NCBI GenBank assembly: GCA_016931275.1
Contig: JAFGFA010000009.1
Location: forward strand, 7,513 to 71,512
From: Parachlamydiales bacterium
GTDB lineage: Bacteria > Chlamydiota > Chlamydiia > Chlamydiales > SM23-39
Direction: 5' to 3'
Length of the DNA stretch: 64,000 bases
The notes below the pieces were generated by a model, which worked only from the letters and a program-made list of their open reading frames with translations, was not told the origin of the DNA and ran no database searches. Made by a program: the position numbers and the translations under genes. Of this stretch, positions 8,266 through 59,643 are shown in pieces. Positions within the stretch are counted from its first letter, which is position 1, and every line of letters starts with the position of its first letter.

Positions 8266-8272
8266 GAGAAAA

Positions 8273-9490: not shown

Positions 9491-9494
9491 TCCC

Positions 9495-16921: not shown

Positions 16922-17224
16922 CGAGATTTTTTCTTTTTGCAAATCTTCGATTTTTTGATTAATTTCTTGCACAAGAGCCTTTGAACTCTGAGCTAACTGC
17001 CAATATTTTTTAGCCGAGGAAAGTTCTGTATTCTGAAACTGCAATCGATTCGCTTCGGACTCATAAAATTCGATACGCCCTTCTAACCCTCTCTTTTCTT
17101 GTTGTAAAACGGTAATTTGTCGATCAATGTGCTCTATTTGCTCTTGTTTCGACAAGGCAAAACTTCCACATATCGGCATCAAAACCATCAAAAAACCTAC
17201 CCACATTAAGAAAAAATTTTTCAT
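16904..17224 (-). CDS. secreted coiled-coil protein (hypothetical)
   Basis: The internal ATG at 17224 gives the signal peptide MKNFFLMWVGFLMVLMPICGSFALS followed by heptad-rich sequence. The longer ORF-track start (17326) would overlap the divergent gene. Confidence 0.5.
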   Translation of the reverse strand: MKNFFLMWVGFLMVLMPICGSFALSKQEQIEHIDRQITVLQQEKRGLEGRIEFYESEANRLQFQNTELSSAKKYWQLAQSSKALVQEINQKIEDLQKEKISLAQTP

Positions 17225-17288
17225 TCTACGCTCAACTATTTCTTTTTTTACCATTCTTGATATACTATTTTTCTTCAAGGTTAGTTTT

Positions 17289-31591: not shown

Positions 31592-31605
31592 ATACGGTCC
31601 ACCTT

Positions 31606-32718: not shown

Positions 32719-32722
32719 TGCG

Positions 32723-38910: not shown

Positions 38911-39167
38911 ACAAAACCTTGTGATATGGCTAATAAAGATGAAAAATAAAAGAAAAAACCTTCTTTTTAAGACAATTTAATTTTCGCACTTCAATAAGTT
39001 TTATGTCAACAAGCTAATAAGCTTCATATTTTAAAATGTTTTCTATTATTAACATTGGCATTAAATACAGAGTTTTTATCCCAGATCCACATCAAATTAT
39101 TAAAAGCTATTCTCAAAAATCCCTTGTAGAAAAATCTACAAAACAATAGATTAATAACATAATTTTT

Positions 39168-39240
39168 GGGCGTATAGCTCAGTTGGTAGAGCGCCTGTCT
39201 TACACACAGGTGGTCATAGGTTCGAGTCCTGTTGCGCCCA
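39168..39240 (+). tRNA. tRNA-Val (anticodon UAC)
   Basis: Cloverleaf folded by hand: acceptor GGGCGTA/TGCGCCC, anticodon arm CCTGT-CTTACAC-ACAGG, T loop TTCGAGT. CCA is not encoded. Confidence 0.92.
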
Positions 39241-39252
39241 ACGAATTATTTT

Positions 39253-39326
39253 GCGGGAGTAGTTCAATTGGTTAGAGCACCGGCCTGTCACGCCGGAAGT
39301 TGCGGGTTCGAGCCCCGTCTCCCGCG
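39253..39326 (+). tRNA. tRNA-Asp (anticodon GUC)
   Basis: Acceptor GCGGGAG/CTCCCGC, anticodon arm CCGGC-CTGTCAC-GCCGG, T arm GCGGG-TTCGAGC-CCCGT. Confidence 0.92.
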
Positions 39327-39337
39327 TTTAAACGCCT

Positions 39338-43300: not shown

Positions 43301-44249
43301 TTTTCATGATCTCTTTAGCTAATTTTTTACTGTCATGCCGAATCAAATTTCTCTTAATACGGTCTTCAGAAGATTTTTTGGCAATAGGACCTAAAAGGTC
43401 TGCAATAATGACTCTTTCCTCTTCTACGTCATTTTCTACCAATTCTCCTTCCTCAGCATAAACATCGATCAAATGCTTGGGAGGCCTTGTCTTATTGACC
43501 AAAATAAAATCAAATAAATCTTTTTCTAAAAATTTTACAAGTTCCGCAAGATAGTCCTTCACTTTAAAGCCGGAGGTTTGCCCAAATCGGTTCATCAAAT
43601 TCACGACAAATAATTTTTTAGCTTGAGAATTGTGCAAGGCTTCAACAACCCCTTCGACAAGAAGATTTGGTATAATAGAGGTATATAAGCCGCCAGGACC
43701 AATGACTATGAGGTCTGCTTGTTTTATTGCTGCAGTAACAAGAGGATTTACTTTAGGAAAAGGCTCCAAATATAAGCTTTTATATCCCTGATCGATTTCT
43801 TGCGAAAGGTAGATCTCCGCCTCTCCTTCTAAAAGTTTTCGATTATTCAAAATCATTTTCAAATGCACCTGATTCATCGTAACCGGAATGACTTTCCCCT
43901 TAATAAATAAAATTCTACCGGCTTCTTCAACAGCTCTTTCAAAACTCCCCGTCACTTTCTCCAATGCAGAAAGTAAGATATTTCCTACACTGTGTCCTCC
44001 AAGATTTCCATTTTCAAAACGGTAATTCATCAAACTACGCATCAGTCTAGACGAATTGGACAGGGCAACCAGGCATTGTCGCACATCTCCTGGAGGCAAA
44101 ACGCCTAATTCATCTCGCAAAATTCCTGTAGAGCCTCCGCTGTCAGCCATAGAAACAATCGCTGAAAGATCAACGTCATATTTTTTTAGTCCTCGCAATA
44201 CAACAAAATTACCCGTACCACCGCCAATTACCACAACTTTTTTCATCAC
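43284..44249 (-). CDS. YvcK/CofD-like gluconeogenesis factor family protein
   Basis: VVVIGGGTGNFVVLRGLK, VSMADSGGSTGILRDE, PPGDVRQCL. Confidence 0.88.
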   Translation of the reverse strand: MMKKVVVIGGGTGNFVVLRGLKKYDVDLSAIVSMADSGGSTGILRDELGVLPPGDVRQCLVALSNSSRLMRSLMNYRFENGNLGGHSVGNILLSALEKVTGSFERAVEEAGRILFIKGKVIPVTMNQVHLKMILNNRKLLEGEAEIYLSQEIDQGYKSLYLEPFPKVNPLVTAAIKQADLIVIGPGGLYTSIIPNLLVEGVVEALHNSQAKKLFVVNLMNRFGQTSGFKVKDYLAELVKFLEKDLFDFILVNKTRPPKHLIDVYAEEGELVENDVEEERVIIADLLGPIAKKSSEDRIKRNLIRHDSKKLAKEIMKIVNNL

Positions 44250-44929
44250 GAATTTCTCAATGTTTGTACGCCTTCTTGCATTACAGGAAGACTAAATAGG
44301 TAATGGCCGGAAACGACAAAGTTAGCTCCCGCATCAATTACCTGCTTTGCCGTATCGGGATTGATGCCCCCATCCACCTGAATCATTAAAGGATCTTTGC
44401 TTTTTCGAGACTCTTGCCCCCCGCTTTTTAGATAGCATCCCTTTGCGATCTCGATCTTTTCTAAAACATCCGGAATAAATTGCTGTCCTCCAAACCCCGG
44501 ATGCACAGACATGAATAAAACCAAATCACATAGATCAAAATATTTCAACGAGAGAGATACCGATGTCTCCGGGTTAAAAGCAAGCCCTGCTTTTTTGCCG
44601 CATCTATGAATAAATTGTATTGTTTCTTCAATATTCTCCGTCGCTTCAAAATGAAAGGTAATAAGATCGGCTCCCACTTCAATAAATCGTTCGATATAAT
44701 CAAAAGGATTATACATCATAAGATGCACATCTAAAAAAAGATCGGTAGAACGATTGATCGCCTCCACCGCTTTCGGTCCCATGGTTAAATTCGGCACAAA
44801 ATGCCCATCCATAATATCGATATGAACCGCATCTGCCCCAGCATCTTCTATTCTTTTTGCCTCATCTCCCAAACGAGAAAAATCTCCCGATAAGATAGAG
44901 ACCCCTACCTTGGTACTTCTCTTAACCAT
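44246..44929 (-). CDS. rpe: ribulose-phosphate 3-epimerase
   Basis: SILSGDF, HIDIMDGHFVPNLT, MSVHPGFGGQ. Confidence 0.95.
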   Translation of the reverse strand: MVKRSTKVGVSILSGDFSRLGDEAKRIEDAGADAVHIDIMDGHFVPNLTMGPKAVEAINRSTDLFLDVHLMMYNPFDYIERFIEVGADLITFHFEATENIEETIQFIHRCGKKAGLAFNPETSVSLSLKYFDLCDLVLFMSVHPGFGGQQFIPDVLEKIEIAKGCYLKSGGQESRKSKDPLMIQVDGGINPDTAKQVIDAGANFVVSGHYLFSLPVMQEGVQTLRNS

Positions 44930-45274
44930 CCATTTTCCCTTATTACTACCTATAAAGTTAAAGGGTTATTCAATGAGCGTCAAGGAGAAGTTATTGCCTG
45001 CGGCAAAAAATATACATCGTCCAATGGCATATATCCCATAGGAGATACGCCATTATCTATTTTTTCAAAGAATTTTTTGCTCTTGGTTTTTATAAAACCA
45101 AGAGCCATGAGCCCAAAACAGATTATCTACTGATCAACGAATATCTTAGTCCTCTTTTAGAACTTTTTAAAAAGGATTGTCGTATAAAATTTTTATAAAA
45201 AAATCTAATCCCCCTCCATAACACATATTTTTGTGTTATCCTCTTTGAAAAATTCCGGGAATAAGAAAATATTC

Positions 45275-45697
45275 TTAAATCTCTTCTTCTGAGGACCTAG
45301 GTGAGCATAACTCGCGGGAAACTCTTTGCCAGTCATCATGCATGTCTACAATAGCATTTATTGAAGTCCGACTCAGACTTTGTAATTTAAGAGCCTGTTT
45401 GGCCGCTAAGCTTATTTTTTGACCTAACAGTATTAAATCATCGATTGCCTTAGTCGAATCTTGAAAGTCTTGATACAACTCTGCAATGTTTATTTTTTGT
45501 TGCTCTTCAGTCAAACAACATCGGGTCGGATAGACTAAAAGAGTATTCTCTACGTCCCTATTGATTTCATTCCATTCTCGAGTCACTTCACTTATTCTAT
45601 CAGAGATGGAAGAAGGAATTTTTCGAATCTCTTCTCGTATCCTATCTTCTGCTAGTTGTTCCGGATTTCTAAAGTCACTAGATATAGTAATAGACAT
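45275..45697 (-). CDS. hypothetical acidic helical protein, last gene of the exporter string
   Basis: The ATG at 45697 (MSITISS) has AGGAG 7 nt upstream. The ORF-track start at 45730 lacks this. 140 aa with no recognisable motif. Confidence 0.55.
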   Translation of the reverse strand: MSITISSDFRNPEQLAEDRIREEIRKIPSSISDRISEVTREWNEINRDVENTLLVYPTRCCLTEEQQKINIAELYQDFQDSTKAIDDLILLGQKISLAAKQALKLQSLSRTSINAIVDMHDDWQRVSRELCSPRSSEEEI

Positions 45698-45786
45698 GAT
45701 TTTCTCCTTTTTGAGGCTATATGTTGCCATATCGATTTGTTTTAATCGATATTTTTCTATTAGAGACTAAATACAGAAAAAACGCG

Positions 45787-48681
45787 TTACCTCTGTTGAG
45801 CTACCCAAGCTGCAAACGGCTTATGTTGTTGCACCAATTCTTCAAATGTCCCAAAAGCTTCAATTTTACCGTGATCGAGAAAATAAATGCGATCCGCATT
45901 TTTTATAGTAGAAATACGATGAGCAATAACAATACGCGTAATCTTTAAATGTTCAATATTTTCTGATACTATCGCCTGAGATTTGCTGTCCAGAGCATTG
46001 GTAGCCTCATCAAAAATTAAAATTTTAGGATTTCCTAAAAGGGCTCGAGTGATAAGAAGCTGTTGTTTTTGTCCCCCCGATAAATTTTTTCCACTATCCG
46101 TAAGATAGGTATGCACTCCCATCGGAAAATCTTGCATAGTCACATCGAAACCGGTCAGCTGCATCGCTCTTGTGACCTCTTCTTGAGAAAAAATTCCTCC
46201 GCAGATTAGGTTATCATAAATAGTTCCTGCTAAAATCTCAGAATCCTGAAGGACAACGCCTAATTGTTGCCGTACTTTTTTAATATCTAAATCACTAACA
46301 TCTTTTCCATCATAATAAATACAGCCTGAAGAAGGTTCATTAAATTTAAGTAGAAGTCGAACTAAGGTCGATTTTCCACATCCTGAAGGACCGACAATGG
46401 CAATAAATTCTCCGGGTCTAGCTACCAAAGAGATTCCTCTTAAGATATCCGAAAGATTCTCCTCATAATGGAAAAAGACATTATCTATTTCTACAAGACC
46501 TTGCAACGTCCCTGGAGAAACCTGGTCTTTTAAAATCTCTTCCGGAGACGTAAAAATGACCTTAGACATTTTCCAACGAGGAATAACATTGCCAAATGTC
46601 TGAATTGCGATAGAAAAGGCATTATACATCGCAATAGAAAACGAACCGAACGCTGCATTAAAGGCAATAAAGTTCCCTATTTGAAATTCCACAACATTTT
46701 TGACCAGATACACTCCCAGAGAAAAAATGGAGAAGGTTCCTAGTATGGGCATCATCTGGTTAAATGCCTGCATAAAATTGGCGATATGCAACGAGAGAAT
46801 ATTATAAGACTGAATACGGGTATATTGTTTTCCCCATTTGGAGAAAATAATATGCTCAGCGGCTTTTAAACGAATTTTTTCTATCCCGGAAATCACCTGT
46901 ACTATAAAACCATTAAACAATCCTTGTTCCTGTAATATCATGGAGTCTATTTTCACTTTCCAACGAATACAGAAAATATTGATCAGGATTCCCAAAAATA
47001 AAACCATGATTCCCAATAAAGTCAATGGCCAACTATAATAAAACATCATTACGAGATAAAGAAGGGAAAAGACTCCGGTAAAAAGAACATTGAAAAAGCT
47101 GCTCGACAAAATGTTTTGGATCTGCCAAATAGAAAAGACCCTGCGAACGAGATCTCCTATAGTAAAGCGATGAAAAAAAGAGACCGGTAATTTTAGCAAC
47201 CTATCCCATAATCCTCCCTGCAACTTATTATGGACGAGTGTTTGTAAATGAAGAACTGCATAGGAACTGATAAAAGAAAACAGAGAAGCGCTGATGCCAA
47301 AAACAAGAAGACCAACCACTAATTGATGAATCAAAGAACCCTGTGCCAAGGGAATAATATAATTGAAAATAATCCCGTTTGCTAATGGCACAAAAAGGGC
47401 ACATACAATGCTTCCAAAACCCAATGCAATAATAGTCAAAATATCTTTTCTATGATTTTTAAAAACAGATTTCCTAAGATTTTTTTTCTCCGTAATATCC
47501 CCTTCTAAGGGAAGATAAAACATATAGGCATCTTTTTGGAGCGCAGATACCGTGTGAGAATTCATTTTTATTTCTCTCAATGTTTTAGGCTCAACGCTAT
47601 AATAAGAACCTCCTTTTCTAATCAAGGCCAAAGGAGAGCCTTCTTGATCCCATGCAAGCAAATGACCATTATCCTGTTTCCACCATTTTCCTACCAATCG
47701 CACCTGCCGGTAACGAACATGAGAATTTTCACAAATATGCATTAAGGCAGAATAGTCATTCTTTCCTTGGAACAGATCTTTTGGAATTGCAAACAAAAAA
47801 CCACTGTATTTTCCTATGATCTGACAACATTGCCCTATCATAGGAAGATGTCGCTCAACATAGGGAAATGTGCGTTTTTCAAAAACATCGATTAAACGCT
47901 GAAAAGCCGCATCGAGAATTTTTCTCCGTCTGTTTTTACTTTCCTTAATTCTTTTTTCTTCCTGTTTTTCCTTCTCTTCATAGGAGTAAATCAAGTACTG
48001 CACAATAAAATGATGAAAAATGGTCAACCCCTGTATCCATGATTGTTCTTCAACAATCTTGCTCGTTTCGTAAGTAACCAAGGAGCCTTTCTCCGTAATA
48101 CTCATCCAGTTGATATAGCATAACGGAAAAATACCCTCAAGAGGCATTAAAAAGGACTTTTCTCCCAAAAAATACAAATTGCCCTGCGTTACCTTAACCC
48201 AGATCAATTGATCCTTTTTGGTATGTTCAAAATAAGGGGCTATCTCCATAGAAACTTGAGGAGAAAACGTCTTTTCTTCTCCTAAATAAAAATAAGAGGA
48301 TATTTCCTTTTTAGGAATATGAATAATACTCTCATTCAATTCGATCACCCAACTCGAAATGTCTCGAATCAACTTGGTTCTGACATTTGCATCATTTTGA
48401 ACGATACTCTCCCAATCCTGTATGGAAATCTGTCTTAAAGCAGTGCTTGCATCAAGATAAGCTTGAATAAGGACATTGTCTAAAGAGACCCTAAAAGGAA
48501 AAACGATCTCTCCTTCCTGACGATGAATCAAAAAAATAGGAAGCTCTTCATTTTTTCCTTTTCTTTCAAAATAAATATCAATAGGGCCCTTTTCCACAAT
48601 CCAAACAACGTCATCCCTTTGAAGGGAAACATAACTAGTTCCCTCTTTTGCATGGATCAGTTCTCCTATGGATATATTCAT
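45787..48681 (-). CDS. NHLP-type bacteriocin-system ABC transporter, second subunit (cNMP-binding-like N-domain, degenerate peptidase-like domain, TMD and NBD)
   Basis: 964 aa. N-terminal beta-barrel-like domain, six-TM exporter domain, Walker A GPSGCGKST, LSGGQKQQ, ILIFDEAT, IAHR. Abuts the upstream ABC gene with 0-nt spacing. Confidence 0.8.
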   Translation of the reverse strand: MNISIGELIHAKEGTSYVSLQRDDVVWIVEKGPIDIYFERKGKNEELPIFLIHRQEGEIVFPFRVSLDNVLIQAYLDASTALRQISIQDWESIVQNDANVRTKLIRDISSWVIELNESIIHIPKKEISSYFYLGEEKTFSPQVSMEIAPYFEHTKKDQLIWVKVTQGNLYFLGEKSFLMPLEGIFPLCYINWMSITEKGSLVTYETSKIVEEQSWIQGLTIFHHFIVQYLIYSYEEKEKQEEKRIKESKNRRRKILDAAFQRLIDVFEKRTFPYVERHLPMIGQCCQIIGKYSGFLFAIPKDLFQGKNDYSALMHICENSHVRYRQVRLVGKWWKQDNGHLLAWDQEGSPLALIRKGGSYYSVEPKTLREIKMNSHTVSALQKDAYMFYLPLEGDITEKKNLRKSVFKNHRKDILTIIALGFGSIVCALFVPLANGIIFNYIIPLAQGSLIHQLVVGLLVFGISASLFSFISSYAVLHLQTLVHNKLQGGLWDRLLKLPVSFFHRFTIGDLVRRVFSIWQIQNILSSSFFNVLFTGVFSLLYLVMMFYYSWPLTLLGIMVLFLGILINIFCIRWKVKIDSMILQEQGLFNGFIVQVISGIEKIRLKAAEHIIFSKWGKQYTRIQSYNILSLHIANFMQAFNQMMPILGTFSIFSLGVYLVKNVVEFQIGNFIAFNAAFGSFSIAMYNAFSIAIQTFGNVIPRWKMSKVIFTSPEEILKDQVSPGTLQGLVEIDNVFFHYEENLSDILRGISLVARPGEFIAIVGPSGCGKSTLVRLLLKFNEPSSGCIYYDGKDVSDLDIKKVRQQLGVVLQDSEILAGTIYDNLICGGIFSQEEVTRAMQLTGFDVTMQDFPMGVHTYLTDSGKNLSGGQKQQLLITRALLGNPKILIFDEATNALDSKSQAIVSENIEHLKITRIVIAHRISTIKNADRIYFLDHGKIEAFGTFEELVQQHKPFAAWVAQQR

Positions 48682-50856
48682 TTATATCCCCTCTGCTTGT
48701 ATTAAAGTCTTATACAGGGGCGACTTTTCCATAAGCTCCTCGTGCTTTCCCCGTTCTACGATCTTGCCTTTGTCCAATACAATAATTTCATCGCAAGCCC
48801 GAACCGTAGAGAGTCTGTGCGCTATAATGATCATGCTACATCCTCTTCGACGAAGATTACGCATGATATCTCGCTCTTTTTCATAATCTAGAGAAGAAGT
48901 CGCTTCATCTAACACTAAAATAGTCGGATTAATCACTAAAGCTCGAGCAATTTCAATTCTCTGCCGTTGTCCACCACTCAAATTTTTTCCTTCTTCTAGT
49001 AATGGAGCATTATAACCTTGTGGGAGAGAGATAATTTCCTCATGAATACAAGCATCCTTGGATGCCTTAACGATATTCTCTTCAGAGATTGTTTCATCCC
49101 ATAAGGTAATGTTATCTTTGATCGTTCCTTCAAATAAAAAAATCGTTTGATCAACAGAAGATAACGAGCGAACACGATGGGCACGATCGATAGCAAAAAG
49201 CGGTTTTCCATCAATCAGAATCTCTCCGCTCCACAGTTCGTACAGTCCCATAATCAACTTGGCTATCGTCGTTTTTCCACATCCCGAAGCTCCAACAAGA
49301 GCAATAGAACTGCCGGGAGAAAGGTTCAGGGAAAAATGATCAATGAGAGGCTGTTTATAGGGATTATAACCGAAAGAAATATCGATCAATTCTAGATGAC
49401 CGCGAAGAGGGGAAGAAAATTCCGAAAGGTTTTCTTGAACCTCATCTATAGAAAGCTCTTCCTTGTTGTCTAAAACATCATCGATACGATGCAGATCTCC
49501 TTTCACCTGCTGAATCGTTTGCCCCAAGCTTATAAACTGACTAAAAGGAGTTAAAAAGCTTATAATAAATACCTGCAACGCCAAAAGCATTCCAATAGAA
49601 AGATTTCCTCTTAACACTTCTATCGAACCAAAATAGAGAAAAAAAGCCGTCGTAATCATTTGCATCAATGGAGGCACCGCCGTTAAAAAAAGATCCTTAA
49701 AATTGATCTCTTGCATAGAAAGAGACGCTTTCGCAAAGTGTCCTGCCCAACGACTGAAAAAATCGTTTTCCATACCGAAGGCTTTTATCGTTTCCATATT
49801 GCGCAAGGCTCCTACAGAGACCCCTATGCTTTTTCCAAAATCCTGCTGAGAACGGGCATAAGCATCTTTTCTAGAACGATTGATCACTAGTAAAGTAAAA
49901 AGGTTGACCCCTGCAGAAGCAATTGCAATTCCCGAAATAGACAAGCTTACCTGGACCATGACAAAGAGATAAAAGACCACAAAAATCAGATTTACTCCCG
50001 CAATCACTATTTGTCCTGTAATTGCCTGGATCACCGTATCATTAGTCAGCAGACGATTGGCAATTTCTGCAGGATATCTTTGCGCAAAAAAACGAATGGG
50101 AAGACGTAAAATATGCCAGAAAAATTTACTCGACAAGGTAATAGAAAGCTTCAGATTCATCAACATTAACACATAGCGCTGTAACCAAGAAAGAGCTCCG
50201 ATCAGCAGCATTGTGACAAAGAGAGCAACAAAAAACATATGATATGAAAAATGTGCCGGCAAAATTTTATCAAAAAATATCTGTGTAAAAATCGGGATCG
50301 ATAATCCGGGAATCACCAATGCAAAAGTGGTAAGAACAATATGAGCCAGAGAAGCAACAACCCCCTTCATTCTTTTTCTCAATGCATCGATAAGGCTAAG
50401 AGGAGTACCGCCTTTTTGAAAACCCTCTCCCGGCTGTAATTCAATAACAATACCGGTAAAGGATTCATCAAATTCTTCGTAAGAAACACTCCTCGGTCCT
50501 GAAGCGGGATCGTTAATAAAAAACTTGCTCCCTCGAAACCCTTCAACCACGACAAAATGATTAAAATTCCAAAACACGATAAAAGGCAAAGGCAAAGAAT
50601 ATAGATCTTGGATCTCTTTGGTATATCCTGCTGCAGTCATTCCCAATTTTTCTGCACCTTTGACCACTTGAAGGGCATTACTGCCATCTCGAGTAACGCC
50701 GCAAATAGTTCTCAATTCTTCTAAAGGCACGAATTTCTTATAAAAGGACAAGACGATGCTTAAAGCCGCTGCTCCGCATTCTACGGCTTCCATTTGAATC
50801 ACTGTAGGAGTTCGGATCCTGTTCCCCAAGAATCTTCTTTTTATCTTCTTCCACAT
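48682..50856 (-). CDS. C39 peptidase-domain ABC transporter (bacteriocin processing and export; NHLP-type first subunit)
   Basis: C39 domain with catalytic Cys27 (TPTVIQMEAVECGAAAL), His (NHFVVVEG) and Asp (INDPASG). Type-1 exporter TMD. Walker A GASGCGKTT, LSGGQRQR, ILVLDEATSSLD. Confidence 0.9.
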   Translation of the reverse strand: MWKKIKRRFLGNRIRTPTVIQMEAVECGAAALSIVLSFYKKFVPLEELRTICGVTRDGSNALQVVKGAEKLGMTAAGYTKEIQDLYSLPLPFIVFWNFNHFVVVEGFRGSKFFINDPASGPRSVSYEEFDESFTGIVIELQPGEGFQKGGTPLSLIDALRKRMKGVVASLAHIVLTTFALVIPGLSIPIFTQIFFDKILPAHFSYHMFFVALFVTMLLIGALSWLQRYVLMLMNLKLSITLSSKFFWHILRLPIRFFAQRYPAEIANRLLTNDTVIQAITGQIVIAGVNLIFVVFYLFVMVQVSLSISGIAIASAGVNLFTLLVINRSRKDAYARSQQDFGKSIGVSVGALRNMETIKAFGMENDFFSRWAGHFAKASLSMQEINFKDLFLTAVPPLMQMITTAFFLYFGSIEVLRGNLSIGMLLALQVFIISFLTPFSQFISLGQTIQQVKGDLHRIDDVLDNKEELSIDEVQENLSEFSSPLRGHLELIDISFGYNPYKQPLIDHFSLNLSPGSSIALVGASGCGKTTIAKLIMGLYELWSGEILIDGKPLFAIDRAHRVRSLSSVDQTIFLFEGTIKDNITLWDETISEENIVKASKDACIHEEIISLPQGYNAPLLEEGKNLSGGQRQRIEIARALVINPTILVLDEATSSLDYEKERDIMRNLRRRGCSMIIIAHRLSTVRACDEIIVLDKGKIVERGKHEELMEKSPLYKTLIQAEGI

Positions 50857-50859
50857 ATC

Positions 50860-51744
50860 TTATTTAACTTTTATATCATGAGATAAAGCATCGTTTCTAT
50901 CGGCCCAAAAAGGTAACAAATAGGAAAAGGGATGTCTTTGTTCTATGATCACCTCAAGAGTGACGAAACTCCCCAGAGGGATTTCCTCTTTTTTAGGCCC
51001 CTTGCCTGATGTCCAAAGAAATTCATCTGCAGCTATTGAAGAAGGCACAGGACGCACAATGACAGGAAGTAAAGGAGTATTTGCAATCATATGTTCTATA
51101 TAAGTCTGATTAAGATAAATACTTTTAAAATAGCTTTCCGTTGCGGGAAGATAAGAAATTTTCTCAACAACCGCTTCGATTCCTCCATATAGCCCTCGAG
51201 CAATACCCCACGGATAGACTCGCACACTCATTCCCTCTTTGACCTGATCTCCGAGTTTAGGAGGAAGAAAACAATAAAATCGGTCTTCCCCTTCTTCTTT
51301 TCTTCCTAATTGCAAAGAGGCAATGACAGCATCTACTGTAGCCCGATTTCCCTTCCCTTGATAAATGTCGATTACAAGTCCCGCATAGGGGGTTCTAATT
51401 TCTGTTTCTTTGCTCGCATTTTTATCCCATAGAACGGCGATCACCTGCCCCTTATCGACCCGATCTCCTAAGGTTACAGGAATACGCAAAATATCTCCTT
51501 CAATAGGACTGGAAATATGATGGAAACGGGTAAAATCAAGATAGATCCCTTCTCCGACAGCCAGAGTATTAATCGTCCCAAAAAGTGCCCATAAAACACC
51601 GAAGACAATGATGAAGGACAAAACTATTAATGCAATCCATGCCTTGGGCTTCACGACATGCAACAAAGTATCTAATTGTTCGGGAGAATATAACTTTTTC
51701 AAGGCCGATTTACGAAAAATAGGAGATGTTTTTTCATGATCCAT
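50860..51744 (-). CDS. HlyD-family secretion adaptor, NHLP bacteriocin-system type, hairpin-less
   Basis: N-terminus FRKSALKKLYSPEQLD followed by a TM, as in NHLP-system HlyD proteins. The lipoyl halves (SPIEGDILRIPVTLGDRV.. and IRTPYAGLVIDI) are separated by only about 10 residues. Confidence 0.8.
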   Translation of the reverse strand: MDHEKTSPIFRKSALKKLYSPEQLDTLLHVVKPKAWIALIVLSFIIVFGVLWALFGTINTLAVGEGIYLDFTRFHHISSPIEGDILRIPVTLGDRVDKGQVIAVLWDKNASKETEIRTPYAGLVIDIYQGKGNRATVDAVIASLQLGRKEEGEDRFYCFLPPKLGDQVKEGMSVRVYPWGIARGLYGGIEAVVEKISYLPATESYFKSIYLNQTYIEHMIANTPLLPVIVRPVPSSIAADEFLWTSGKGPKKEEIPLGSFVTLEVIIEQRHPFSYLLPFWADRNDALSHDIKVK

Positions 51745-51802
51745 AGAAATGTGAGCTCCTTAAGCTCACAATAGTCAAATCTGTGAAGAATATCAAATAT
51801 TT

Positions 51803-51985
51803 TTACAAATTATGCGTCAATGCATAATAAATCACATATATCCAAGAGAGAAAACCATGAATGATCGCCCATATCAAGGACTTGTTTACAGTATAAGAGA
51901 CGACCATTGCCAGAGCAGAACCAAAAGAAATTCCCTCGCGAATAAAATATTTTCTATAAAAACAACCTTTTTCCATTTTGCTCAT
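51803..51985 (-). CDS. small conserved two-TM membrane protein
   Basis: The start at MSKMEKG (51985) avoids overlap with the RND gene. The core ISFGSALAMVVSYTVNKSLIWAIIHGFLSWIYVIYYAL resembles a widespread small-protein family of unknown function. Confidence 0.55.
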   Translation of the reverse strand: MSKMEKGCFYRKYFIREGISFGSALAMVVSYTVNKSLIWAIIHGFLSWIYVIYYALTHNL

Positions 51986-51992
51986 TCCTTTT

Positions 51993-54900
51993 TTAGAGAA
52001 CATCCATAGATTGCGATCCCCCACCTTTTTTTGATGAGAAAAAACGAGAAAAAACCCGTTTTATTTTTTCTATATAATAAAACACTATAGGCGTCAATAC
52101 AAAGGTGAAAAGAATCGAGGCGAGCATCCCCCCCATCATAACAGCTCCCATAGAAGATTTTGTCTCTTCAATGGCGTGAAGCTGAGGAACGACACCAAAA
52201 ACAATTGCCAAAGAGGTCATTAAAATCATTTGGAAACGCTCTTTGCTCGCTTCCCATAATGCCTGTTTCAAATCCAGAGCAGCCATTTTTTGAATAGTGC
52301 TGTCGACCAACAAAATAGAATTGTTCACAACAAGCCCCACTAACATAACCATCCCAAGCATAGAAGCGATATTAATAGATTCTTCCAAAAAGAAAAGAGT
52401 ATAATACACCCCAATAAAAGATGTTGCCACAGAAAGGATAATCGATATTGGATAAGAAAAAGAGTTTAAAAGGGCCGCCAGTAACATATAAGTTAAAACT
52501 ACAGCGAGGAAAAATGCTTTTACAATTTCCAATGCAGATTCTCTTTGTGTCTCATCAGCTCCAGAAAAAACATACCAGGCATCTTCTGTTGTAAGATCCT
52601 TAAATTCTTTTTCTAATATCTTCTTCATATGAGAGGGATTCGATTTTCCTAACATGCCATCGAGTTTAATCACTCTTTGTTTATCCTCATGGACAATAGG
52701 AGGAACTGCCTCTCTTTTTTCTATTCTTCCCAACGATGTAATGGGCAAAAGTCCGTTTCTAGTAATCAAATGAATCTGATGAATATCATCCAGTCCTCGG
52801 ACATATCGGTCATTCATTTTGACAGAAATATTATATTCTTTTCCTCCTTCTTTATAAATATTGTTGTCATCTCCATAAAGAGCTGTTCGTAATGCAGCAC
52901 CCACTTGAACATCCCGAATCCCGTTCTCTAAAAGGGTTGAAGTATTTGGTAAAAAACATAATTCTTTTTTAGGCTTTTTATAAGAGGAAGAAATAGATTG
53001 AAAATATCCCGTGGCAATCATTTTATCTTCCATTTTTTGAGAAAGATCGATCATTTTATCATAATCATTCCCATAAATCGCTAATGTCATATCTCCTTCA
53101 TCAAATCCTTTCTGCGCACCTCGAATAATAGAAACGTCCAAGTCGGCAATCTGCGAAAGCTTGGAAATAATGCTAGTGATAATTTCTGTATCCTTTCTCT
53201 TTCTTTTCTCTCTAGAAGACAAATGGACCGTCACGGAAGAATTTTCAGCCCCCTTAATCCCAACAAGGGAAATATAGGATTCAAGTTCCGGAATATTCCG
53301 AACAATCTCTTCAACGCGCTGCGTCAACGAAAGAGTATAATCCAGAGAAGATCCCTGTGGGGTCTGTGATTTGATGATAAATTTATCTTCATCAGAACGA
53401 GGAAAAAAATTCCCTGAGATATAAGGGGTCACATATCGAACAGACACAAAAAAGATCAGGACAGCTACAACTGTCCATTTTGGAAACCGAAAAATAAAAT
53501 GAAATAATTTTTCATACTTTTTTATTAAGAATTCCACTGTTCTTCGAAGAGGAACAAACCGGGTAGGCTTAGCATTTTTTAATAAATAACAACATAACAT
53601 GGGCGTTAAAATAAATGAGACCACCAGGGAAAAAATCGTAACAAACACAACAGTCATCCCAAAAGAAAACATAAAACGGCCGATAATACCTTTCATAAAG
53701 GCAATGGGAAGAAAAACAACTAAGTTCGTCCCTGTAGCAGCAAGAATTGCTGAGGTTACTTCCTTCGTTCCCTGAATTGCGGCATCAAAAGAGTTCTTCC
53801 CTTGTTTCAAATGCAGCCAAAAACTATCGATAATGACGATCGCATTGGAAATAAGAGTTCCTAATGCTGACGCTAAGGCCAAAAGAGTTAAGAAATTAAT
53901 CGTAAAGTCAAAAGCATCCATAAGGAAAAAAGTAGCAATAATAGAAATAGGAATAATCAAAGATGCTATAAAAGTTAATCGCACATTACCGGTAAAGAGA
54001 AATAAAATTACAACTGTCAGAACAATCCCGATCAATATATCCATCTCTGTATTAATATTCTCCCGGATAATGACCTTAGTATTATCCGTCACAATATCCA
54101 AAGACGTATCTGTTGGTAATGATGCTGTAAAGTCTTTCATTTTTCGCTGAATTTGACGGCCGATATTAACTGCATTGCTATCAGAAGATTTTTTAACGGA
54201 AAGAATCAAAGCGTTTTTTCCATTTAGTCGAGCTACTTTTTCTATTTTTTTATATCCATCTTCAATAGTCGCTATGGAAGATAAAGGAACAATCTCTCCG
54301 TTGCGTGTAATTAAAGAAACCTTTGCAATATCTTCCATCGATTCAAATTCCCCCACGAACTTCACATTATAAGAAGCCAGGGTGTTTTCGATTTCTCCGC
54401 TGGGAATATTCATATTCTGCGTCTGCATCATGCCTAGGACATCTTCCGTACTGATATAATGTTCTTTCATAAGCATAGGATCCAGACGAACATTAATTTG
54501 TCTTTCTTGTCCTCCAATGATCTCGACACTGGCAACATCTTTAATAGCCAATAAACGATCTTTCAATGTTTTATCGGCATAATCATACAATGCTTTTTCA
54601 TCTAAAGAGGAACTTGTCAGAGCCATTTCCATAACTGGTTGTACAAAAGGGTCAAATTTTTGAACAATCGGCTTCTGCATCCCCTTAGGAAATTTATTGG
54701 CCAGAGCATCAATCTTATCTTTGACCTCGATAAATTTGGTGTTGGAATCCGCAGAGAGCAAAAATTGCACAAGAACAAGTCCAAAATTTTCATACGATTG
54801 GCTTCGGATTTTTTTGACCTCGGAAAGTTCCGACACAGCATCCTCCACCTTATTGATGACCAAAGATTCCATTTCAGCGGGGGAAGCTCCGGGATAGACA

Positions 54901-55040
54901 AAAGAAATCGTGATCAAAGGAAATTCGACTTTCGGTTGTTTATCTAAATTCAAGTTAAAAAAGGAAACGATTCCCAATATTACCAAAAGAGACACAAACA
55001 TAATAGTCGTTACAGGTCGTTTGACAAAGAACTCAATCAT
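51993..55040 (-). CDS. RND efflux pump inner-membrane component (AcrB/HAE1-like)
   Basis: 1015 aa, N-terminus MIEFFVKRPVTTIMFVSLLVILG, 12-TM plus two large periplasmic loops. Confidence 0.92.
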   Translation of the reverse strand: MIEFFVKRPVTTIMFVSLLVILGIVSFFNLNLDKQPKVEFPLITISFVYPGASPAEMESLVINKVEDAVSELSEVKKIRSQSYENFGLVLVQFLLSADSNTKFIEVKDKIDALANKFPKGMQKPIVQKFDPFVQPVMEMALTSSSLDEKALYDYADKTLKDRLLAIKDVASVEIIGGQERQINVRLDPMLMKEHYISTEDVLGMMQTQNMNIPSGEIENTLASYNVKFVGEFESMEDIAKVSLITRNGEIVPLSSIATIEDGYKKIEKVARLNGKNALILSVKKSSDSNAVNIGRQIQRKMKDFTASLPTDTSLDIVTDNTKVIIRENINTEMDILIGIVLTVVILFLFTGNVRLTFIASLIIPISIIATFFLMDAFDFTINFLTLLALASALGTLISNAIVIIDSFWLHLKQGKNSFDAAIQGTKEVTSAILAATGTNLVVFLPIAFMKGIIGRFMFSFGMTVVFVTIFSLVVSFILTPMLCCYLLKNAKPTRFVPLRRTVEFLIKKYEKLFHFIFRFPKWTVVAVLIFFVSVRYVTPYISGNFFPRSDEDKFIIKSQTPQGSSLDYTLSLTQRVEEIVRNIPELESYISLVGIKGAENSSVTVHLSSREKRKRKDTEIITSIISKLSQIADLDVSIIRGAQKGFDEGDMTLAIYGNDYDKMIDLSQKMEDKMIATGYFQSISSSYKKPKKELCFLPNTSTLLENGIRDVQVGAALRTALYGDDNNIYKEGGKEYNISVKMNDRYVRGLDDIHQIHLITRNGLLPITSLGRIEKREAVPPIVHEDKQRVIKLDGMLGKSNPSHMKKILEKEFKDLTTEDAWYVFSGADETQRESALEIVKAFFLAVVLTYMLLAALLNSFSYPISIILSVATSFIGVYYTLFFLEESINIASMLGMVMLVGLVVNNSILLVDSTIQKMAALDLKQALWEASKERFQMILMTSLAIVFGVVPQLHAIEETKSSMGAVMMGGMLASILFTFVLTPIVFYYIEKIKRVFSRFFSSKKGGGSQSMDVL

Positions 55041-55043
55041 TTT

Positions 55044-55721
55044 TTACTCCTCACCATATATGTGAATTTTTTCTTTATGATTCAAATATTTTCCTCCTTG
55101 GATTACCACAAGGTCTCCCTCTTCGAGTCCTCTCTGAATCACCATGGTTTCACCATTCTCTTTGCCACAAACCACATAGGTCTTAAGGCAATGACCATCT
55201 TTCACAACCCATGTATAGGCAAGATTTTTTTCTCTATAGACCGCTTCGATCGGTAAAACAATCGATTGAGAACCGTGAGGGTTCGACAAGTCCGCAATAA
55301 ACGTCCCCGAAGGCAATTCGCTCTGCAAAGGAAAAAGCCCTTCGACACGAAATAAGCCTTTTGCGCGATCCAAACTCTCGCTCAAAAAAGTAATCTCTCC
55401 GATAATCGGACGTTTATCTCGATACAATAGAACACGAGTATCATTTTTAATTTGTTCGCTCATCTCCTGCGAAACATAGGCATAAAATTTATTATCGGCA
55501 ATACTGGTAATAGTCAGAGGAACAGTCGTAGAAACATCGGACAAACGGATCTGTAACACTTTTACGGGCTTTCCTAATTTTTGCCGCTCTCCAGAAAAGC
55601 TCACAATAGGCTGTTCATTTTTAGTGATAATGCTTTTTTGCTTACCCCTTACTAATCCAATAAACAAAAGGATTAACAAGAAACATAAGAATGTGTTTAG
55701 CAACTTTTTACTCATGGGCAT
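55044..55721 (-). CDS. truncated-architecture RND periplasmic adaptor (MFP) lacking hairpin and lipoyl regions
   Basis: 225 aa. N-terminal TM, then beta-barrel/membrane-proximal-like sequence ending GLEEGDLVVIQG. Positioned between the OMF and RND genes. Confidence 0.65.
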   Translation of the reverse strand: MPMSKKLLNTFLCFLLILLFIGLVRGKQKSIITKNEQPIVSFSGERQKLGKPVKVLQIRLSDVSTTVPLTITSIADNKFYAYVSQEMSEQIKNDTRVLLYRDKRPIIGEITFLSESLDRAKGLFRVEGLFPLQSELPSGTFIADLSNPHGSQSIVLPIEAVYREKNLAYTWVVKDGHCLKTYVVCGKENGETMVIQRGLEEGDLVVIQGGKYLNHKEKIHIYGEE

Positions 55722-57012
55722 ATTCTCTCCCTGTCAGCATTTCAATTTTCGCAAGAGCGACATTCAACTTAAACAAGGTCGTCGCCGTCTTCATCTTCTG
55801 ACTAGTAAGCATCATTTCCGCATCATTTAAGTCCGTAAGTGATATTTGTCCCGACTTCAGAAGTTCTTGACTCATGATAAAGGATTGTTGCGCTAAAGAA
55901 AGCGCTTCTTTTTGGGCAGGCAACACTTTAATTAATTCATTATATTCCAAGAGGCTTTTTTCCAACTCAAGAGTAAGCTGTTTGTGGATCTTCTTATACG
56001 AAAGTTCTGTATTCATTTGATCCATTCGAGCCTGTTTCACTTTAAACATCGTCGTAATACTAGTCGTCAAAGGGACCTGCAAGTTAATTCCTACCGTAGC
56101 ATAATAGCGCAAAAAGACATCTCCTACATAAAAATCATCGTTGCTAGCCCCTTTGTAATTATAACGCGCAAAACCGGAAAGCGTCGGATAATAATAGGCT
56201 TTTTTGTTTTTCACAAAATATTCTTGCCCTTCTGACACAAGTTTCATCGCTTTCAATAAGGGATGATTGGCCAACATTTGCGATAACGCTTCATCCGAAT
56301 CTACAAAAGGATATACTTCAGGATATTCTGAGGACAACTCTATGGACCCGACAGGTTCCATTCCCAACTGTTTTTTCAACGTCTCCGTTGCCGTATTATA
56401 AGAAGTTTCCGCACTGGCAATCATGGGAACTCGGGCCGCAATATCGGCATCGATTTTAATATTGTCTCGTTTCGATACTCTCCCTTCGCGAGATCGTTGA
56501 AACAAAATTTCCTTATTTCTTCTCGTACTATTATAGGATTGCTGCATTACGTCTAACATTTCATGCGCACAAAGGACGTTATAATACATAACTTTTGTAG
56601 AAAAAAGAACCTCTTGCCTTGTATTCTCTTTTTGAAATACCGCCGCTTGCTCCATTTTTTTAGACCCTTTTAATAAGGAAGAAATTTTCCCAAAAGTAGT
56701 AATAATCTGATTCGCACTAATCCCATAATCTAGAGTAAAATCCCTTATGGAAGCAGAATGAGGCATATCTTTCGGATATTTAAAATTTCTAACCCAAGTG
56801 ACATCTCCTGCAACTTGAGGAAGCAGTGTCGATTGTATTTCTCGATATTGAGCAATGCTCTTATCTACATCGTTCACTTTAATCTGATATTCCTCATTTT
56901 CATCTACGGCCATCTCTAAAGCTTTTTGAAGAGATAGGGAAGAAAGATCGTCATTTCCCCATAAGGGAAAAACAAAACACATTAATAAACATGTATGAAC
57001 TATTTTGGACAT
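55708..57012 (-). CDS. TolC-family outer membrane efflux protein
   Basis: Signal peptide, two OEP repeats with long helical segments. Confidence 0.85.
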   Translation of the reverse strand: MSKIVHTCLLMCFVFPLWGNDDLSSLSLQKALEMAVDENEEYQIKVNDVDKSIAQYREIQSTLLPQVAGDVTWVRNFKYPKDMPHSASIRDFTLDYGISANQIITTFGKISSLLKGSKKMEQAAVFQKENTRQEVLFSTKVMYYNVLCAHEMLDVMQQSYNSTRRNKEILFQRSREGRVSKRDNIKIDADIAARVPMIASAETSYNTATETLKKQLGMEPVGSIELSSEYPEVYPFVDSDEALSQMLANHPLLKAMKLVSEGQEYFVKNKKAYYYPTLSGFARYNYKGASNDDFYVGDVFLRYYATVGINLQVPLTTSITTMFKVKQARMDQMNTELSYKKIHKQLTLELEKSLLEYNELIKVLPAQKEALSLAQQSFIMSQELLKSGQISLTDLNDAEMMLTSQKMKTATTLFKLNVALAKIEMLTGREYAHE

Positions 57013-57650
57013 TGTAATGATTCCTGTAAGGTATGCAAATGAAACTTATATATGTTAGTCAACTTGTTAAAATTCTGACTATTCAATGAAAGGGGCACTC
57101 CTATTAAGATGGAATGAAAGATATAACTCAAGTCCTGTGCCGAAAACTTATTAGAGAAAACATTTGCTTTCTGAGCCTGCTGAATTAATTCCCGAAACAC
57201 TTCTCGTAGCGGAATAATAGTAATCGTATCAATCGCCTCATAATGAGGAAATAAAATCTTTTTCTCAAGAACATCTAATTGCTCTATCTGCGGAATGTTT
57301 TGTTTCCATTCAAACAAGACCCCTACTACTTCAAAAAATAAATAGGGATGAGTAATTTTTTTTTCGAAAAGCTCGAACAACAATTCAATTTTCTTAAGAG
57401 GAGCCAGATGTTTTTCTCTATAAAAAAGGATCCATAACATTTCTAAATGTTGTGTTAGGGTAAAATAACAAATAACATCGATTTTTTGAGGAAAATAATT
57501 ATAAAAGGTCGCCTCAGAGACTCCTACTTCTTCACAAATCTCTTTAATGGAAATGGCGGAAAATCTCACGGAATAAAGCTTCTGTATGAACGCTTTTGTC
57601 AACGCTAATTTTGTCTCGATTATTTTTCTTTTTCGCAATGTTATTGTCAT
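57000..57650 (-). CDS. TetR/AcrR family transcriptional regulator
   Basis: N-terminal HTH (FSAISIKEICEEVGVSEATFYNYFPQK). 13-nt overlap with the OMF gene. Confidence 0.88.
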   Translation of the reverse strand: MTITLRKRKIIETKLALTKAFIQKLYSVRFSAISIKEICEEVGVSEATFYNYFPQKIDVICYFTLTQHLEMLWILFYREKHLAPLKKIELLFELFEKKITHPYLFFEVVGVLFEWKQNIPQIEQLDVLEKKILFPHYEAIDTITIIPLREVFRELIQQAQKANVFSNKFSAQDLSYIFHSILIGVPLSLNSQNFNKLTNIYKFHLHTLQESLQCPK

Positions 57651-57688
57651 CCTAACTACTCTATCGTTGAAACAGAAAATCTAAATTT

Positions 57689-57714
57689 AGTTAACTCTAT
57701 TTTTAGAGTCAACT
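57689..57714. promoter_or_regulatory. candidate TetR operator (imperfect palindrome)
   Basis: AGTTAACTCTA-tttt-TAGAGTcAACT, with 10 of 11 positions complementary. It lies 39-64 nt upstream of the tetR-like start. Confidence 0.4.
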
Positions 57715-57804
57715 CTAAAATTTTCTCTATACTCCTCTGACAAAGAACAAATACTGTTCCTTTTAAGAAAAATGAAGCTTATTGCCAAACCACTTATTAA
57801 CTTT

Positions 57805-59643
57805 TTAAGGAAGGTTCGAAATCTTCAAGCCAATCTTTTCCAATTCCGGATACAAAATGCCTAATTCCTGAGGAAAGATAATATATCCCGCATAGGTAAT
57901 CTCCAAAAAAACCGATTCAAAAAAAAGACTTTTATTTAAATAAGGATGGAGAATGCGTAAAAAATCTTCCAACAATTTAGAACGAGCTCCTAAACTGGGA
58001 TACGTGAATACAAAAAACGCCGATTCATTATACATCATCATCTCGGGAAAAGAATAAGACGTTCTTTTCGCGGCATCTAAAGCCAACAAAAAGAGCCTAT
58101 GGATCTCCATTTTATAACGAAAAAGAGCTTCTACCGGCCTTATTGCATAAAAAAACTTTTCCACAAAAAGCTCTTTTCCTTTTACAAAATCCTTCACGTT
58201 TCTTTTAAAAGATTCGTAAGCCTGATTTTGCTTGAAGATCATCCCTCCATTATAGTCCCTTAGATCCTGAAATAAACGAAGAAGCTCTGCATAAGCCTCT
58301 TGCCGCGCTTTATGAATGTCTAAAGAATGGTCCTCCCTCAGATAAGGAGCTGCCGGCAAAAGAAGGCGAAAGACAAGAACCTCTTTGGGATATTTCTTTC
58401 GCACTTTTCCAACAACACGGCTTCTCTCTAAGACAATTTTATAGACTGATTTTTTCGCACTTAGTATTTCTTCTACAGAAGGAACAGAAGGCTTGACTAT
58501 GCGCGCTAATATGATGCTAAACCCTATTTCCTGATCATTTTGCTGATCAAACTGAATGATGACTTGGGGAATATCGTCGACATATTTTAACTCATCTGCA
58601 AGAACGGAAATATTTTTGAGGATTTCTTCTTCATTTCTCGGCATAAAAATCGGATGAATTAATTTCTCGATTTCCGCCATTGCATAAACGGGCAACTCCA
58701 TTCGCAACTTCTGTATCTCCTTTTCATGAAAAGGCATTCCGTTCCTCTCTACTTCCAAATATATGGTATGAATTCCGTTTAATGACGATTTATCCTCGTA
58801 ATAAGAATGAATCAAGGGATGAAGAGAAGGATCCACTTTTTGTAGGGCTCTTAAAAAATGCTCCCGATCAAAAACCTCATTTTTCTGAAGCATCCAGGAA
58901 AACAAAATCGCTAAAACGCTTTTTTTATTTTTTCCATCCTGTACGCCATTTTTCAAAAATTTCATGAGATGATGGCGAATCAAAGAATTTTTTTTAATCT
59001 TCTGCTCCAGCAATTTCTGCATGATAAAAAGGGTAAAGATCACTCGACTAACATGATAAGGTTCTCTTTGCTCGATAAAATCAGAGGAGACATGGACTAA
59101 AAAACGACGCATATAATCCATAATTTCCGATCCAAAATCTTTGGAATGTCCTCTCATAAGATGTGCAATTTTTTCTTGAATCAGATACGAGCGATTATCA
59201 ACACCCAGCGGCTTAAATCCCAAAACCTCTTCCGCTTCTTTTTCTCCTTGAAGTCCAAAAATCAGCTCCTCTTCTATCATAGACTTTATTCGGATCATCT
59301 GATCTGCTTCTTCTTCGTTTTCCATCTCAATTGTTATAGAAAAATAACACAAGGAATTTTTGCGATCTTCTACAGAAAAACGACACATGGACCATGCCGT
59401 CAAAGATCGTTTATATTGAGGAGTCAGCAATAAACGATGACGCAACGTATAAGAGATAAAAGAAAGGAGATGTTCTTTGTAAGGAGCAATACCCTCTATC
59501 TCTAAAACCTTTCTGTTACGATTCCATATAATAAAAGGAATCAAATCGGAAGAAAGTTCCTGATCGTTTTTCTCGAGGAGATTCACTATAAAAGGATAAA
59601 AATGATCCGGCGCGTGAATTTCTTTTAGAACAATGCCGCCCAT
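57805..59643 (-). CDS. hypothetical protein (612 aa), translationally coupled to the upstream kinase gene
   Basis: Long uninterrupted ORF. Its ATG overlaps the aspartokinase stop (TAATG at 59641-59645). No motif recognised. Confidence 0.6.
   Translation of the reverse strand: MGGIVLKEIHAPDHFYPFIVNLLEKNDQELSSDLIPFIIWNRNRKVLEIEGIAPYKEHLLSFISYTLRHRLLLTPQYKRSLTAWSMCRFSVEDRKNSLCYFSITIEMENEEEADQMIRIKSMIEEELIFGLQGEKEAEEVLGFKPLGVDNRSYLIQEKIAHLMRGHSKDFGSEIMDYMRRFLVHVSSDFIEQREPYHVSRVIFTLFIMQKLLEQKIKKNSLIRHHLMKFLKNGVQDGKNKKSVLAILFSWMLQKNEVFDREHFLRALQKVDPSLHPLIHSYYEDKSSLNGIHTIYLEVERNGMPFHEKEIQKLRMELPVYAMAEIEKLIHPIFMPRNEEEILKNISVLADELKYVDDIPQVIIQFDQQNDQEIGFSIILARIVKPSVPSVEEILSAKKSVYKIVLERSRVVGKVRKKYPKEVLVFRLLLPAAPYLREDHSLDIHKARQEAYAELLRLFQDLRDYNGGMIFKQNQAYESFKRNVKDFVKGKELFVEKFFYAIRPVEALFRYKMEIHRLFLLALDAAKRTSYSFPEMMMYNESAFFVFTYPSLGARSKLLEDFLRILHPYLNKSLFFESVFLEITYAGYIIFPQELGILYPELEKIGLKISNLP

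Follow-up and report, generated by a model that had tools for sequence, protein, structure and literature searches.

A divergent three-gene exporter of the NHLM type without nearby cargo in a chlamydia-like bacterium

What does a peptide exporter with an intact leader protease carry when no substrate is encoded beside it? This question is raised by three genes at positions 45787-51744 of a 64,000-nucleotide stretch of DNA, here called the window, from a Parachlamydiales bacterium (assembly GCA_016931275.1, contig JAFGFA010000009.1, positions 7,513 to 71,512, forward strand). The genes encode an adaptor and two ATP-binding cassette (ABC) proteins, one of which bears a C39 protease domain. Our analysis points to an intact exporter of the NHLM type, and we regard it as probable that its cargo is an NHLP/Nif11-type peptide encoded outside the window.

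Composition and family of the exporter

The segment consists of exactly three contiguous, intact open reading frames (ORFs) on the minus strand. The first encodes a HlyD-family periplasmic adaptor of 294 aa (50860-51744), the second a peptidase-containing ABC transporter (PCAT) of 724 aa with a C39 protease, a six-helix membrane domain and a nucleotide-binding domain (NBD) (48682-50856), and the third a second ABC half-transporter of 964 aa (45787-48681). The co-oriented genes are separated by 3 nt (adaptor/724-aa gene) and 0 nt (724-aa/964-aa gene), and their ~1,980 codons contain neither a stop nor a frameshift. A public contig that was assembled independently (L080) encodes an identical protein, and SRR13394437 contains an identical copy.

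Families were assigned by Pfam and NCBIfam profile scans, with the NCBIfam cutoffs applied. The 724-aa protein matched TIGR03796 over its full length (residues 15-720) with 945.1 bits, above the cutoff of 853.3 (E = 2e-284). The 964-aa protein matched TIGR03797 over residues 284-963 with 704.6 bits, 5 bits under the cutoff of 709.4 (E = 1e-211), and its next best family reached 318 bits. The adaptor, with Pfam matches to Biotin_lipoyl and HlyD_3, scored 149 bits against TIGR03794 (NHLM_micro_HlyD; cutoff 156.2, E = 2e-43), in two stretches. The order adaptor, first ABC, second ABC is canonical for the NHLM cluster, an ABC transport cluster made up of three genes, which was found, by phylogenetic profile and local clustering, to travel with NHLP/Nif11-type precursors (TIGR03793 and TIGR03798) of ribosomally synthesized, post-translationally modified peptides (RiPPs) (Haft, Basu and Mitchell 2010, PMC2887384). 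Judged by these profile matches, the trio very probably belongs to the NHLM export cluster (TIGR03794/TIGR03796/TIGR03797), and the window system is a divergent copy of an exporter family known since 2010. The window trio shares with that cluster its three proteins, their order and a C39-ABC protein above the equivalog cutoff. It differs in its chlamydia-like host, in two scores just under cutoff, in the lack of an NHLP/Nif11 precursor in the window and in being joined to a resistance-nodulation-division (RND) efflux operon in one gene string.

The 724-aa protein contains Peptidase_C39 (1.7e-34), ABC_membrane and ABC_tran domains and matches PCAT1 (4RY2) and ComA over their full length (E = 1e-95 and 1e-83). 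The C39 domain (residues ~15-145; 50422-50814, minus strand) has its best Protein Data Bank (PDB) match by phmmer in LahT150 (6MPZ), with E = 3.8e-44 over 136 aligned residues. In this alignment Gln21, Cys27, His100 and Asp116 stand opposite Gln21, Cys27, His101 and Asp117 of LahT, whose catalytic triad is Cys27/His101/Asp117 and for which Gln21 is also named (PMC6363468). All four residues are invariant across eight aligned family members. Both NBDs possess a canonical Walker A, signature, Walker B with catalytic Glu, and H-loop. In the 724-aa protein these are GASGCGKTT at 522, LSGGQ at 626, DEAT at 650 and AHR at 679; in the 964-aa protein, GPSGCGKST at 764, LSGGQ at 867, DEAT at 891 and AHR at 920. 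A first-pass annotation of the window had described the C39 catalytic residues as kept and both NBDs as canonical, and had concluded that the machine looks functional. These statements stand, and the alternative of a non-catalytic C39 domain is not borne out on alignment. The annotation had missed the described family to which the genes very probably belong, the gene string around them and the related systems of other Chlamydiota.

Well-studied relatives share the protease but differ in their surroundings. LahT, the ABC transporter maturation and secretion (AMS)/PCAT protein of Lachnospiraceae C6A11 (Bobeica et al. 2019, PMC6363468), has a C39 domain with the same conserved Gln21, Cys27, His and Asp. 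It belongs, however, to its own lanthipeptide cluster with many precursors, whereas the window has neither precursor nor LanM and its pump is accompanied by a second ABC protein and an adaptor of the periplasm. The architecture of C39 protease, membrane domain and NBD is shared by PCAT1 of Clostridium thermocellum and streptococcal ComA; these are single-gene homodimeric pumps with adjacent cargo, whereas the window encodes two unlike ABC proteins and an adaptor.

In the 964-aa protein the ABC_membrane and ABC_tran domains both lie in the C-terminal 560 residues, and the TIGR03797 model spans only the last 686 residues of this partner ABC protein. Full-length relatives, named NHLM/NHLP exporter, have 936-980 aa and 29-37% identity, and across most NHLM relatives the second ABC protein measures 890-1010 aa. 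Over the N-terminal 400 residues, 14 full-length relatives align at 20-26% identity to the window protein. AlphaFold2 predicted two beta-barrels in tandem for the N-terminal region (residues ~1-210; 48052-48681, minus strand), with a mean predicted local distance difference test (pLDDT) of 85.5. Foldseek against the PDB matched these barrels to the tandem cyclic-nucleotide-binding (CNB) domains of PKG and PKA-R (E about 1e-6, probability 0.98-1.0). Nucleotide binding by the barrels is doubtful, because the Pfam cNMP model (PF00027) gives no match to them even at E up to 10.

A 50-residue helix separates the barrels from a C39-like domain (residues ~278-395; 47497-47850, minus strand; pLDDT 84.1). 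Its best Foldseek match is the C39-like domain of HlyB (3ZUA; template modelling (TM) score 0.64, probability 1.0), and HlyB/D, PCAT1 and LahT come next. Profile comparison with true C39 domains by hhalign was not significant, so that the domain is backed by fold comparison only. In the segment aligned by hhalign, SPLALI stands opposite NHFVVV, which places a Pro at the position of the catalytic His, and Pro73 is invariant in a family alignment. The C39-like domain is predicted to be non-catalytic. The arrangement of barrels, long helix and HlyB-like C39-like domain ahead of the transporter core is family-wide and not specific to the window copy. As a property of the family, the system pairs a cleaving pump with a pump bearing a domain of the substrate-tethering type. 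It thereby resembles the HlyB/HlyD/TolC type I secretion system, in which the same kind of non-catalytic C39-like domain occurs, and which the window parallels further in having a HlyD-family adaptor and a TolC-like factor encoded nearby. Unlike this system, it has an adaptor devoid of the long hairpin and a catalytic C39 pump in addition, and it encodes no RTX-type substrate.

The missing hairpin also accounts for the score of the adaptor. BLASTP aligned the 294-aa protein with the 410-aa adaptor of a related locus (contig L082) in two blocks, residues 4-116 to 3-114 and 119-279 to 243-403. The ~128 residues absent from the window protein correspond to the coiled-coil hairpin of long-form adaptors, and it is because of this gap that the TIGR03794 score falls under the cutoff; the similarly short Simkania adaptor scores 159. 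Beside NHLM transporters (loci L001-L229) adaptor length is bimodal, 266-295 aa versus 417-540 aa. Hairpin-less adaptors occur in Anaerolineae, Gemmatimonadota, Verrucomicrobiota, SAR324 and Chlamydiota, and the short form is therefore not tied to single-membrane cells. Both the short adaptor and the long second ABC protein were considered as special features of the window copy and rejected, since both are widespread in the family.

Cargo search and chlamydial relatives

We searched the whole 64-kb window for cargo in several ways. Among 100 intergenic ORFs of at least 20 aa, no leader terminates in GG, GA or GS, and a double-glycine regular expression returned one unconvincing segment of 47 aa only. 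For leader hidden Markov models (HMMs) we used 37 precursors of the Nif11 type and 14 of the NHLP type, recovered beside homologous transporters, and ran the models against stop-to-stop six-frame translations of at least 20 aa. Their best match in the window had E = 0.65; outside the window, the full-length NHLP HMM did recover the precursor of Simkania, at E = 8e-15. A 16-residue cleavage-site HMM gave a best E of 3.8 on the window, but this model is insensitive and missed the Simkania precursor too. The spacers beside the trio measure only 56-345 nt and contain no plausible ORF.

Two small ORFs flank the exporter. Directly 3' of the second ABC gene and on the same strand lies an ORF of 151 aa (45275-45730, minus strand) that matches no Pfam or NCBIfam family, contains no GG, GA or GS dipeptide and has no homologue in related chlamydial or other NHLM loci. 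Between the RND pump and adaptor genes lies a small hydrophobic ORF (51803-52024, minus strand), of 73 aa from a GTG start and called as 57 aa on L080, again with no family match and no homologue in related loci. Both were considered as cargo or immunity proteins and rejected, as they show no cleavage site, family or homologues.

Maturases were equally lacking. Pfam and NCBIfam scans of all larger ORFs in the window found no LanM, LanB, LanC, YcaO or similar maturase, and the sole radical-SAM protein is the housekeeping enzyme RlmN (5146-6192). A RiPP biosynthetic gene cluster comprises a precursor and at least one maturase; among the window genes we found neither. The first-pass annotation had reported that the window encodes no double-glycine cargo and that no RiPP maturase is nearby, and our searches agree with it on both counts: a GG-leader gene that might have been missed was looked for by ORF reading, regular expression and HMMs, and none was found. 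It had also presented the exporter as a notable orphan whose substrate is encoded elsewhere or is unconventional; either may be the case. The absence of a nearby precursor holds, but its notability was overstated. We sampled 79 loci encoding C39-ABC relatives at 46-50% identity (from cyanobacteria, Anaerolineae, Acidobacteriota and others) and restricted the count to the 41 with full 10-kb flanks. A Nif11/NHLP precursor lay within 10 kb in 20 of these and in the other 21 there was none; the orphan state holds for about half of the exporter family. Precursor genes can sit far from modifying enzymes; their paralogous families are large, with as many as 29 members in one genome, and the published drawings show only the members closest to modification enzymes (Haft et al. 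2010, PMC2887384).

A more concrete indication of the cargo came from chlamydial relatives, which we sought with the conserved part of the C39-like domain. The trio was present in three more chlamydial genomes: a Chlamydiales metagenome-assembled genome (MAG) (L164, MFD02923.bin.1.43, same contig as L081), "Chlamydiae bacterium RIFCSPLOWO2_12_FULL_49_12" (L167) and a complete Simkania sp. chromosome (L200). Raw identities alone gave no clear nearest neighbour for the window. In a neighbour-joining tree of 122 C39-ABC proteins, the window protein grouped with those of L164, L167 and L200 and with that of contig L082 (taxon not assigned). In a 50-taxon subsample these five had a bootstrap support of 96/100, and the four among them other than the window had 100/100. 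A recent transfer of the trio from outside the phylum was considered and, as this tree does not support it, rejected. Within the clade the adaptor occurs in both forms, short in the window (294 aa), L164 (277 aa) and L200 (277 aa) and long in L167 (404 aa) and L082 (410 aa).

The Simkania locus carries its own cargo gene. A precursor of 90 aa (L200:5794-6066, minus strand) lies divergently beside the short adaptor gene and scores 71.8 bits against TIGR03793 (cutoff 50.9), which makes it a bona fide NHLP precursor. It belongs to a Simkaniaceae family of 88-100 aa, represented in public data by twelve protein clusters of 50-93% identity. The leader has a strictly conserved end, ...LSD[DEA]xLSHIVAG, in which Ala-Gly takes the place of Gly-Gly; the short tail behind it has 3-15 residues and in most cases starts with [FY]HYA. 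The precursor gene adjoins the trio, in divergent orientation, wherever the context is readable (L200, L230-L232), and no maturase is evident near these loci. The Simkaniaceae loci share with the window the short adaptor, the C39-ABC protein and the long ABC protein in the same order, and their C39-ABC proteins fall in the same bootstrap-supported clade; they differ in having a precursor beside the adaptor gene, whereas the window has none. Neither L164 nor L167 has a recognisable precursor within 10 kb. The literature that we searched contained no paper connecting Chlamydiae with NHLP peptides and no description of the Simkaniaceae NHLP locus.

Two further observations concern these relatives. 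In L230 and L231 (both 4037-6943) the Simkaniaceae second ABC gene is called as three pieces of 147, 644 and 159 aa, which suggests a frameshift or decay, or may be an assembly error. In L082 a LanM-type lanthipeptide synthetase gene (1410-4259, minus strand) adjoins the trio, and the C39-ABC protein of this contig is 64% identical to that of a Chlamydiae MAG. If L082 is truly chlamydial, this would be a lanthipeptide cluster in that phylum. An 83-aa ORF beside the LanM gene was considered as a precursor and rejected, as it has no NHLP/Nif11 leader.

Genomic setting of the trio

Compared with the usual chlamydial gene order, the trio lies within a lineage-specific insertion of ~12.9 kb (44930-57804), between the gene of a 612-aa protein (57805-59643) and rpe (44246-44929). 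The host belongs to Chlamydiota: besides a CT021-family protein, the gene order rpe-yvcK-efp-accB-accC is present, its rpe-yvcK-efp part matches chlamydial loci, and Rpe is 64-66% identical to that of Parachlamydiales and Chlamydiales MAGs. Among 70 chlamydial rpe loci with at least 2 kb of upstream sequence, a homologue of the 612-aa protein ends less than 700 nt upstream of rpe in 27 and lies 1.4-10 kb away in 18 more. Genes of the 12.9-kb string were absent from all of 80 chlamydial rpe loci, and in Chlamydiota the interval from the 612-aa protein gene to rpe seems to be a variable site. Signatures of a mobile-element origin were looked for at the borders and rejected: there is no tRNA and there are no flanking repeats, and the base composition is the same as in the rest of the window.

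The genes of the insertion are co-oriented and tightly packed, in the order TetR regulator, TolC-like factor, RND adaptor, AcrB-type pump, hydrophobic ORF, exporter trio and 151-aa ORF. The first four, all on the minus strand, span 51993-57650 and overlap or lie at most 3 nt apart. They comprise a TetR regulator (57000-57650; Pfam TetR_N), a TolC-like outer-membrane factor (55708-57012; Pfam OEP, 7.5e-41), a truncated-looking RND adaptor of 225 aa (55044-55721; partial match to TIGR01730) and an AcrB-type RND pump (51993-55040; Pfam ACR_tran, 1.7e-205). The TolC-like gene is co-oriented with the trio in the same string but is formally part of the RND operon. About 145 other NHLM loci showed no such TetR/outer-membrane factor/RND set beside the trio, save for a distant AcrB-like match in L052.

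Of the 322 positions in TIGR01730 the 225-aa RND adaptor matches only 163-320, which leaves out the lipoyl and hairpin half; as its start is overlapped by the gene of the outer-membrane factor, no space is left in which that half could be encoded. Either the pump is degenerate or the adaptor is of an unusual, short kind. A 9-bp stem-loop, TGTGAGCTTAAGGAGCTCACA, occupies 51750-51770 (minus strand) within the 58 nt that separate the hydrophobic ORF from the trio's adaptor gene, and a weak promoter-like site lies just upstream. Transcription of the RND part and of the trio may be divided here; the counts of such sites do not exceed those in shuffled controls.

Elsewhere the window is unusually rich in exporters. 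A second export string (30146-36466, minus strand) contains a TolC-like protein of 481 aa, whose gene at 30146-31591 is the second of its kind in the window, two ABC-2 permeases, a double-ATPase ABC protein and a HlyD-type adaptor of 287 aa. A LolA-like and MacB/FtsX-type ABC set lies at 6321-10196. Proteins of types typical of host-associated Chlamydiota are also encoded, namely an ankyrin-repeat protein (11879-12817), a Fic-domain protein (24421-25572) and a CT021-family protein (17127-18263). A tmRNA gene (tag GKEPAIAA; 23952-24314) and adjacent tRNA-Val and tRNA-Asp genes (39167-39327) are present, none of them at the borders of the insertion.

Proposed export route, alternatives and significance

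On the reading that we favour, the 724-aa protein would recognise a long NHLP/Nif11-type leader, cleave it after a Gly-Gly-type site by means of Cys27/His100/Asp116 and carry the core peptide over the inner membrane. Its 964-aa partner probably tethers or gates the substrate, as heterodimer partner or as a second pump, and the short HlyD-type adaptor would have its place in the periplasm. At the outer membrane, the peptide may leave by the TolC-like factor, whose gene lies 4 kb upstream in the string; as the adaptor has no hairpin, the part that contacts TolC in HlyD-type systems, this step is uncertain and is the weakest part of the proposed mechanism. The cargo would most likely be the product of at least one NHLP/Nif11-type precursor gene in another part of the genome, because the window copy belongs to the clade in which Simkania has an NHLP precursor.

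Several points weigh against this reading. The window yielded no precursor, and the cargo class is proposed from relatives only. The LSHIVAG pattern, searched at the DNA level in 185,579 species representatives, was found in only three Simkaniaceae genomes (plus four chance matches); L164 and L167 gave no match, and the pattern was uninformative for these two. The window forms a long branch, its first and second ABC proteins being ~50% and 33-37% identical to the nearest relatives; the substrate of so divergent a system could have changed, and there is a slight chance that its grouping with the chlamydial sequences is a long-branch artefact. The adaptor and the second ABC protein score slightly under the NCBIfam cutoffs, although these are still by far their best families. 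Finally, a coupling of the trio to the TolC-like factor appears doubtful from the gene content, because the adaptor has no hairpin and the neighbouring RND adaptor looks truncated.

The trio might instead be a remnant without cargo, idle and decaying after its precursor was lost or never transferred. The empty 64 kb fits this explanation, as does the lack of a recognisable precursor within 10 kb in L164 and L167; the unusual divergence of the window proteins could reflect relaxed selection, and the three-piece second ABC gene in Simkaniaceae contigs, unless an assembly error, shows that decay may occur in the clade. Yet the ~1,980 codons are uninterrupted, all catalytic and ATPase motifs are canonical in both ABC proteins, the independently assembled contig encodes an identical protein, and half of the intact family members likewise have no precursor nearby. 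We consider a remnant unlikely.

Repurposing of the exporter is distinctly less plausible still. Its cargo would then have no classical double-glycine leader (for example the 151-aa product or a host-directed factor), or the trio would form a general efflux island with the RND and TolC-like genes under TetR. The tight, co-oriented packing of the trio with that operon, a juxtaposition that the other NHLM loci do not show, speaks for this reading, and the 151-aa ORF does follow the second ABC gene; but this ORF has neither a GG/GA/GS site nor homologues. The HlyB-like C39-like domain is of the kind used for tethering large unfolded substrates, but it is family-wide, like the CNB-like barrels. 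An intact C39 domain so close to a protease of double-glycine leaders speaks for a substrate whose leader is cleaved off.

A bolder idea goes further and holds that the genome has no NHLP/Nif11 cargo at all, and that the trio with the TetR, TolC-like and RND genes is a composite island of an intracellular bacterium that secretes an unconventional substrate directed at host or competitors. In a milder version, environmental Chlamydiota would use NHLP-derived peptides (compare the leader end ...LSHIVAG followed by FHYA) as signals or weapons in their hosts, the window being a divergent branch. To these two together we give only a slim chance. It is very improbable that a cargo gene lies in the window and was missed, being shorter than 20 aa, with a non-standard start or with a leader unlike those of NHLP, Nif11 and class II bacteriocins: precursor genes are small and often overlooked, the Simkania leader ends in VAG and not GG, and the cleavage-site HMM failed on it, but the full-length six-frame search was sensitive enough to recover that precursor and the spacers beside the trio hold no plausible ORF.

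With an exporter of NHLP/Nif11-type cargo encoded elsewhere as the favoured reading, the window alone adds one more copy to the family, and a cargo gene that is not next door is a common feature of it. The wider significance lies in the phylum. Several environmental Chlamydiota lineages carry related NHLP-type exporters that form one clade. The exporter and the RND/TolC operon together occupy a 12.9-kb insertion, an illustration of how a gene order otherwise conserved among chlamydiae gains export functions at a variable site. With the conserved precursors of the Simkaniaceae relatives there is a definite candidate for the cargo, and the biology thereby becomes open to test. A secreted peptide, if one were detected, would represent a new type of extracellular product among chlamydiae.

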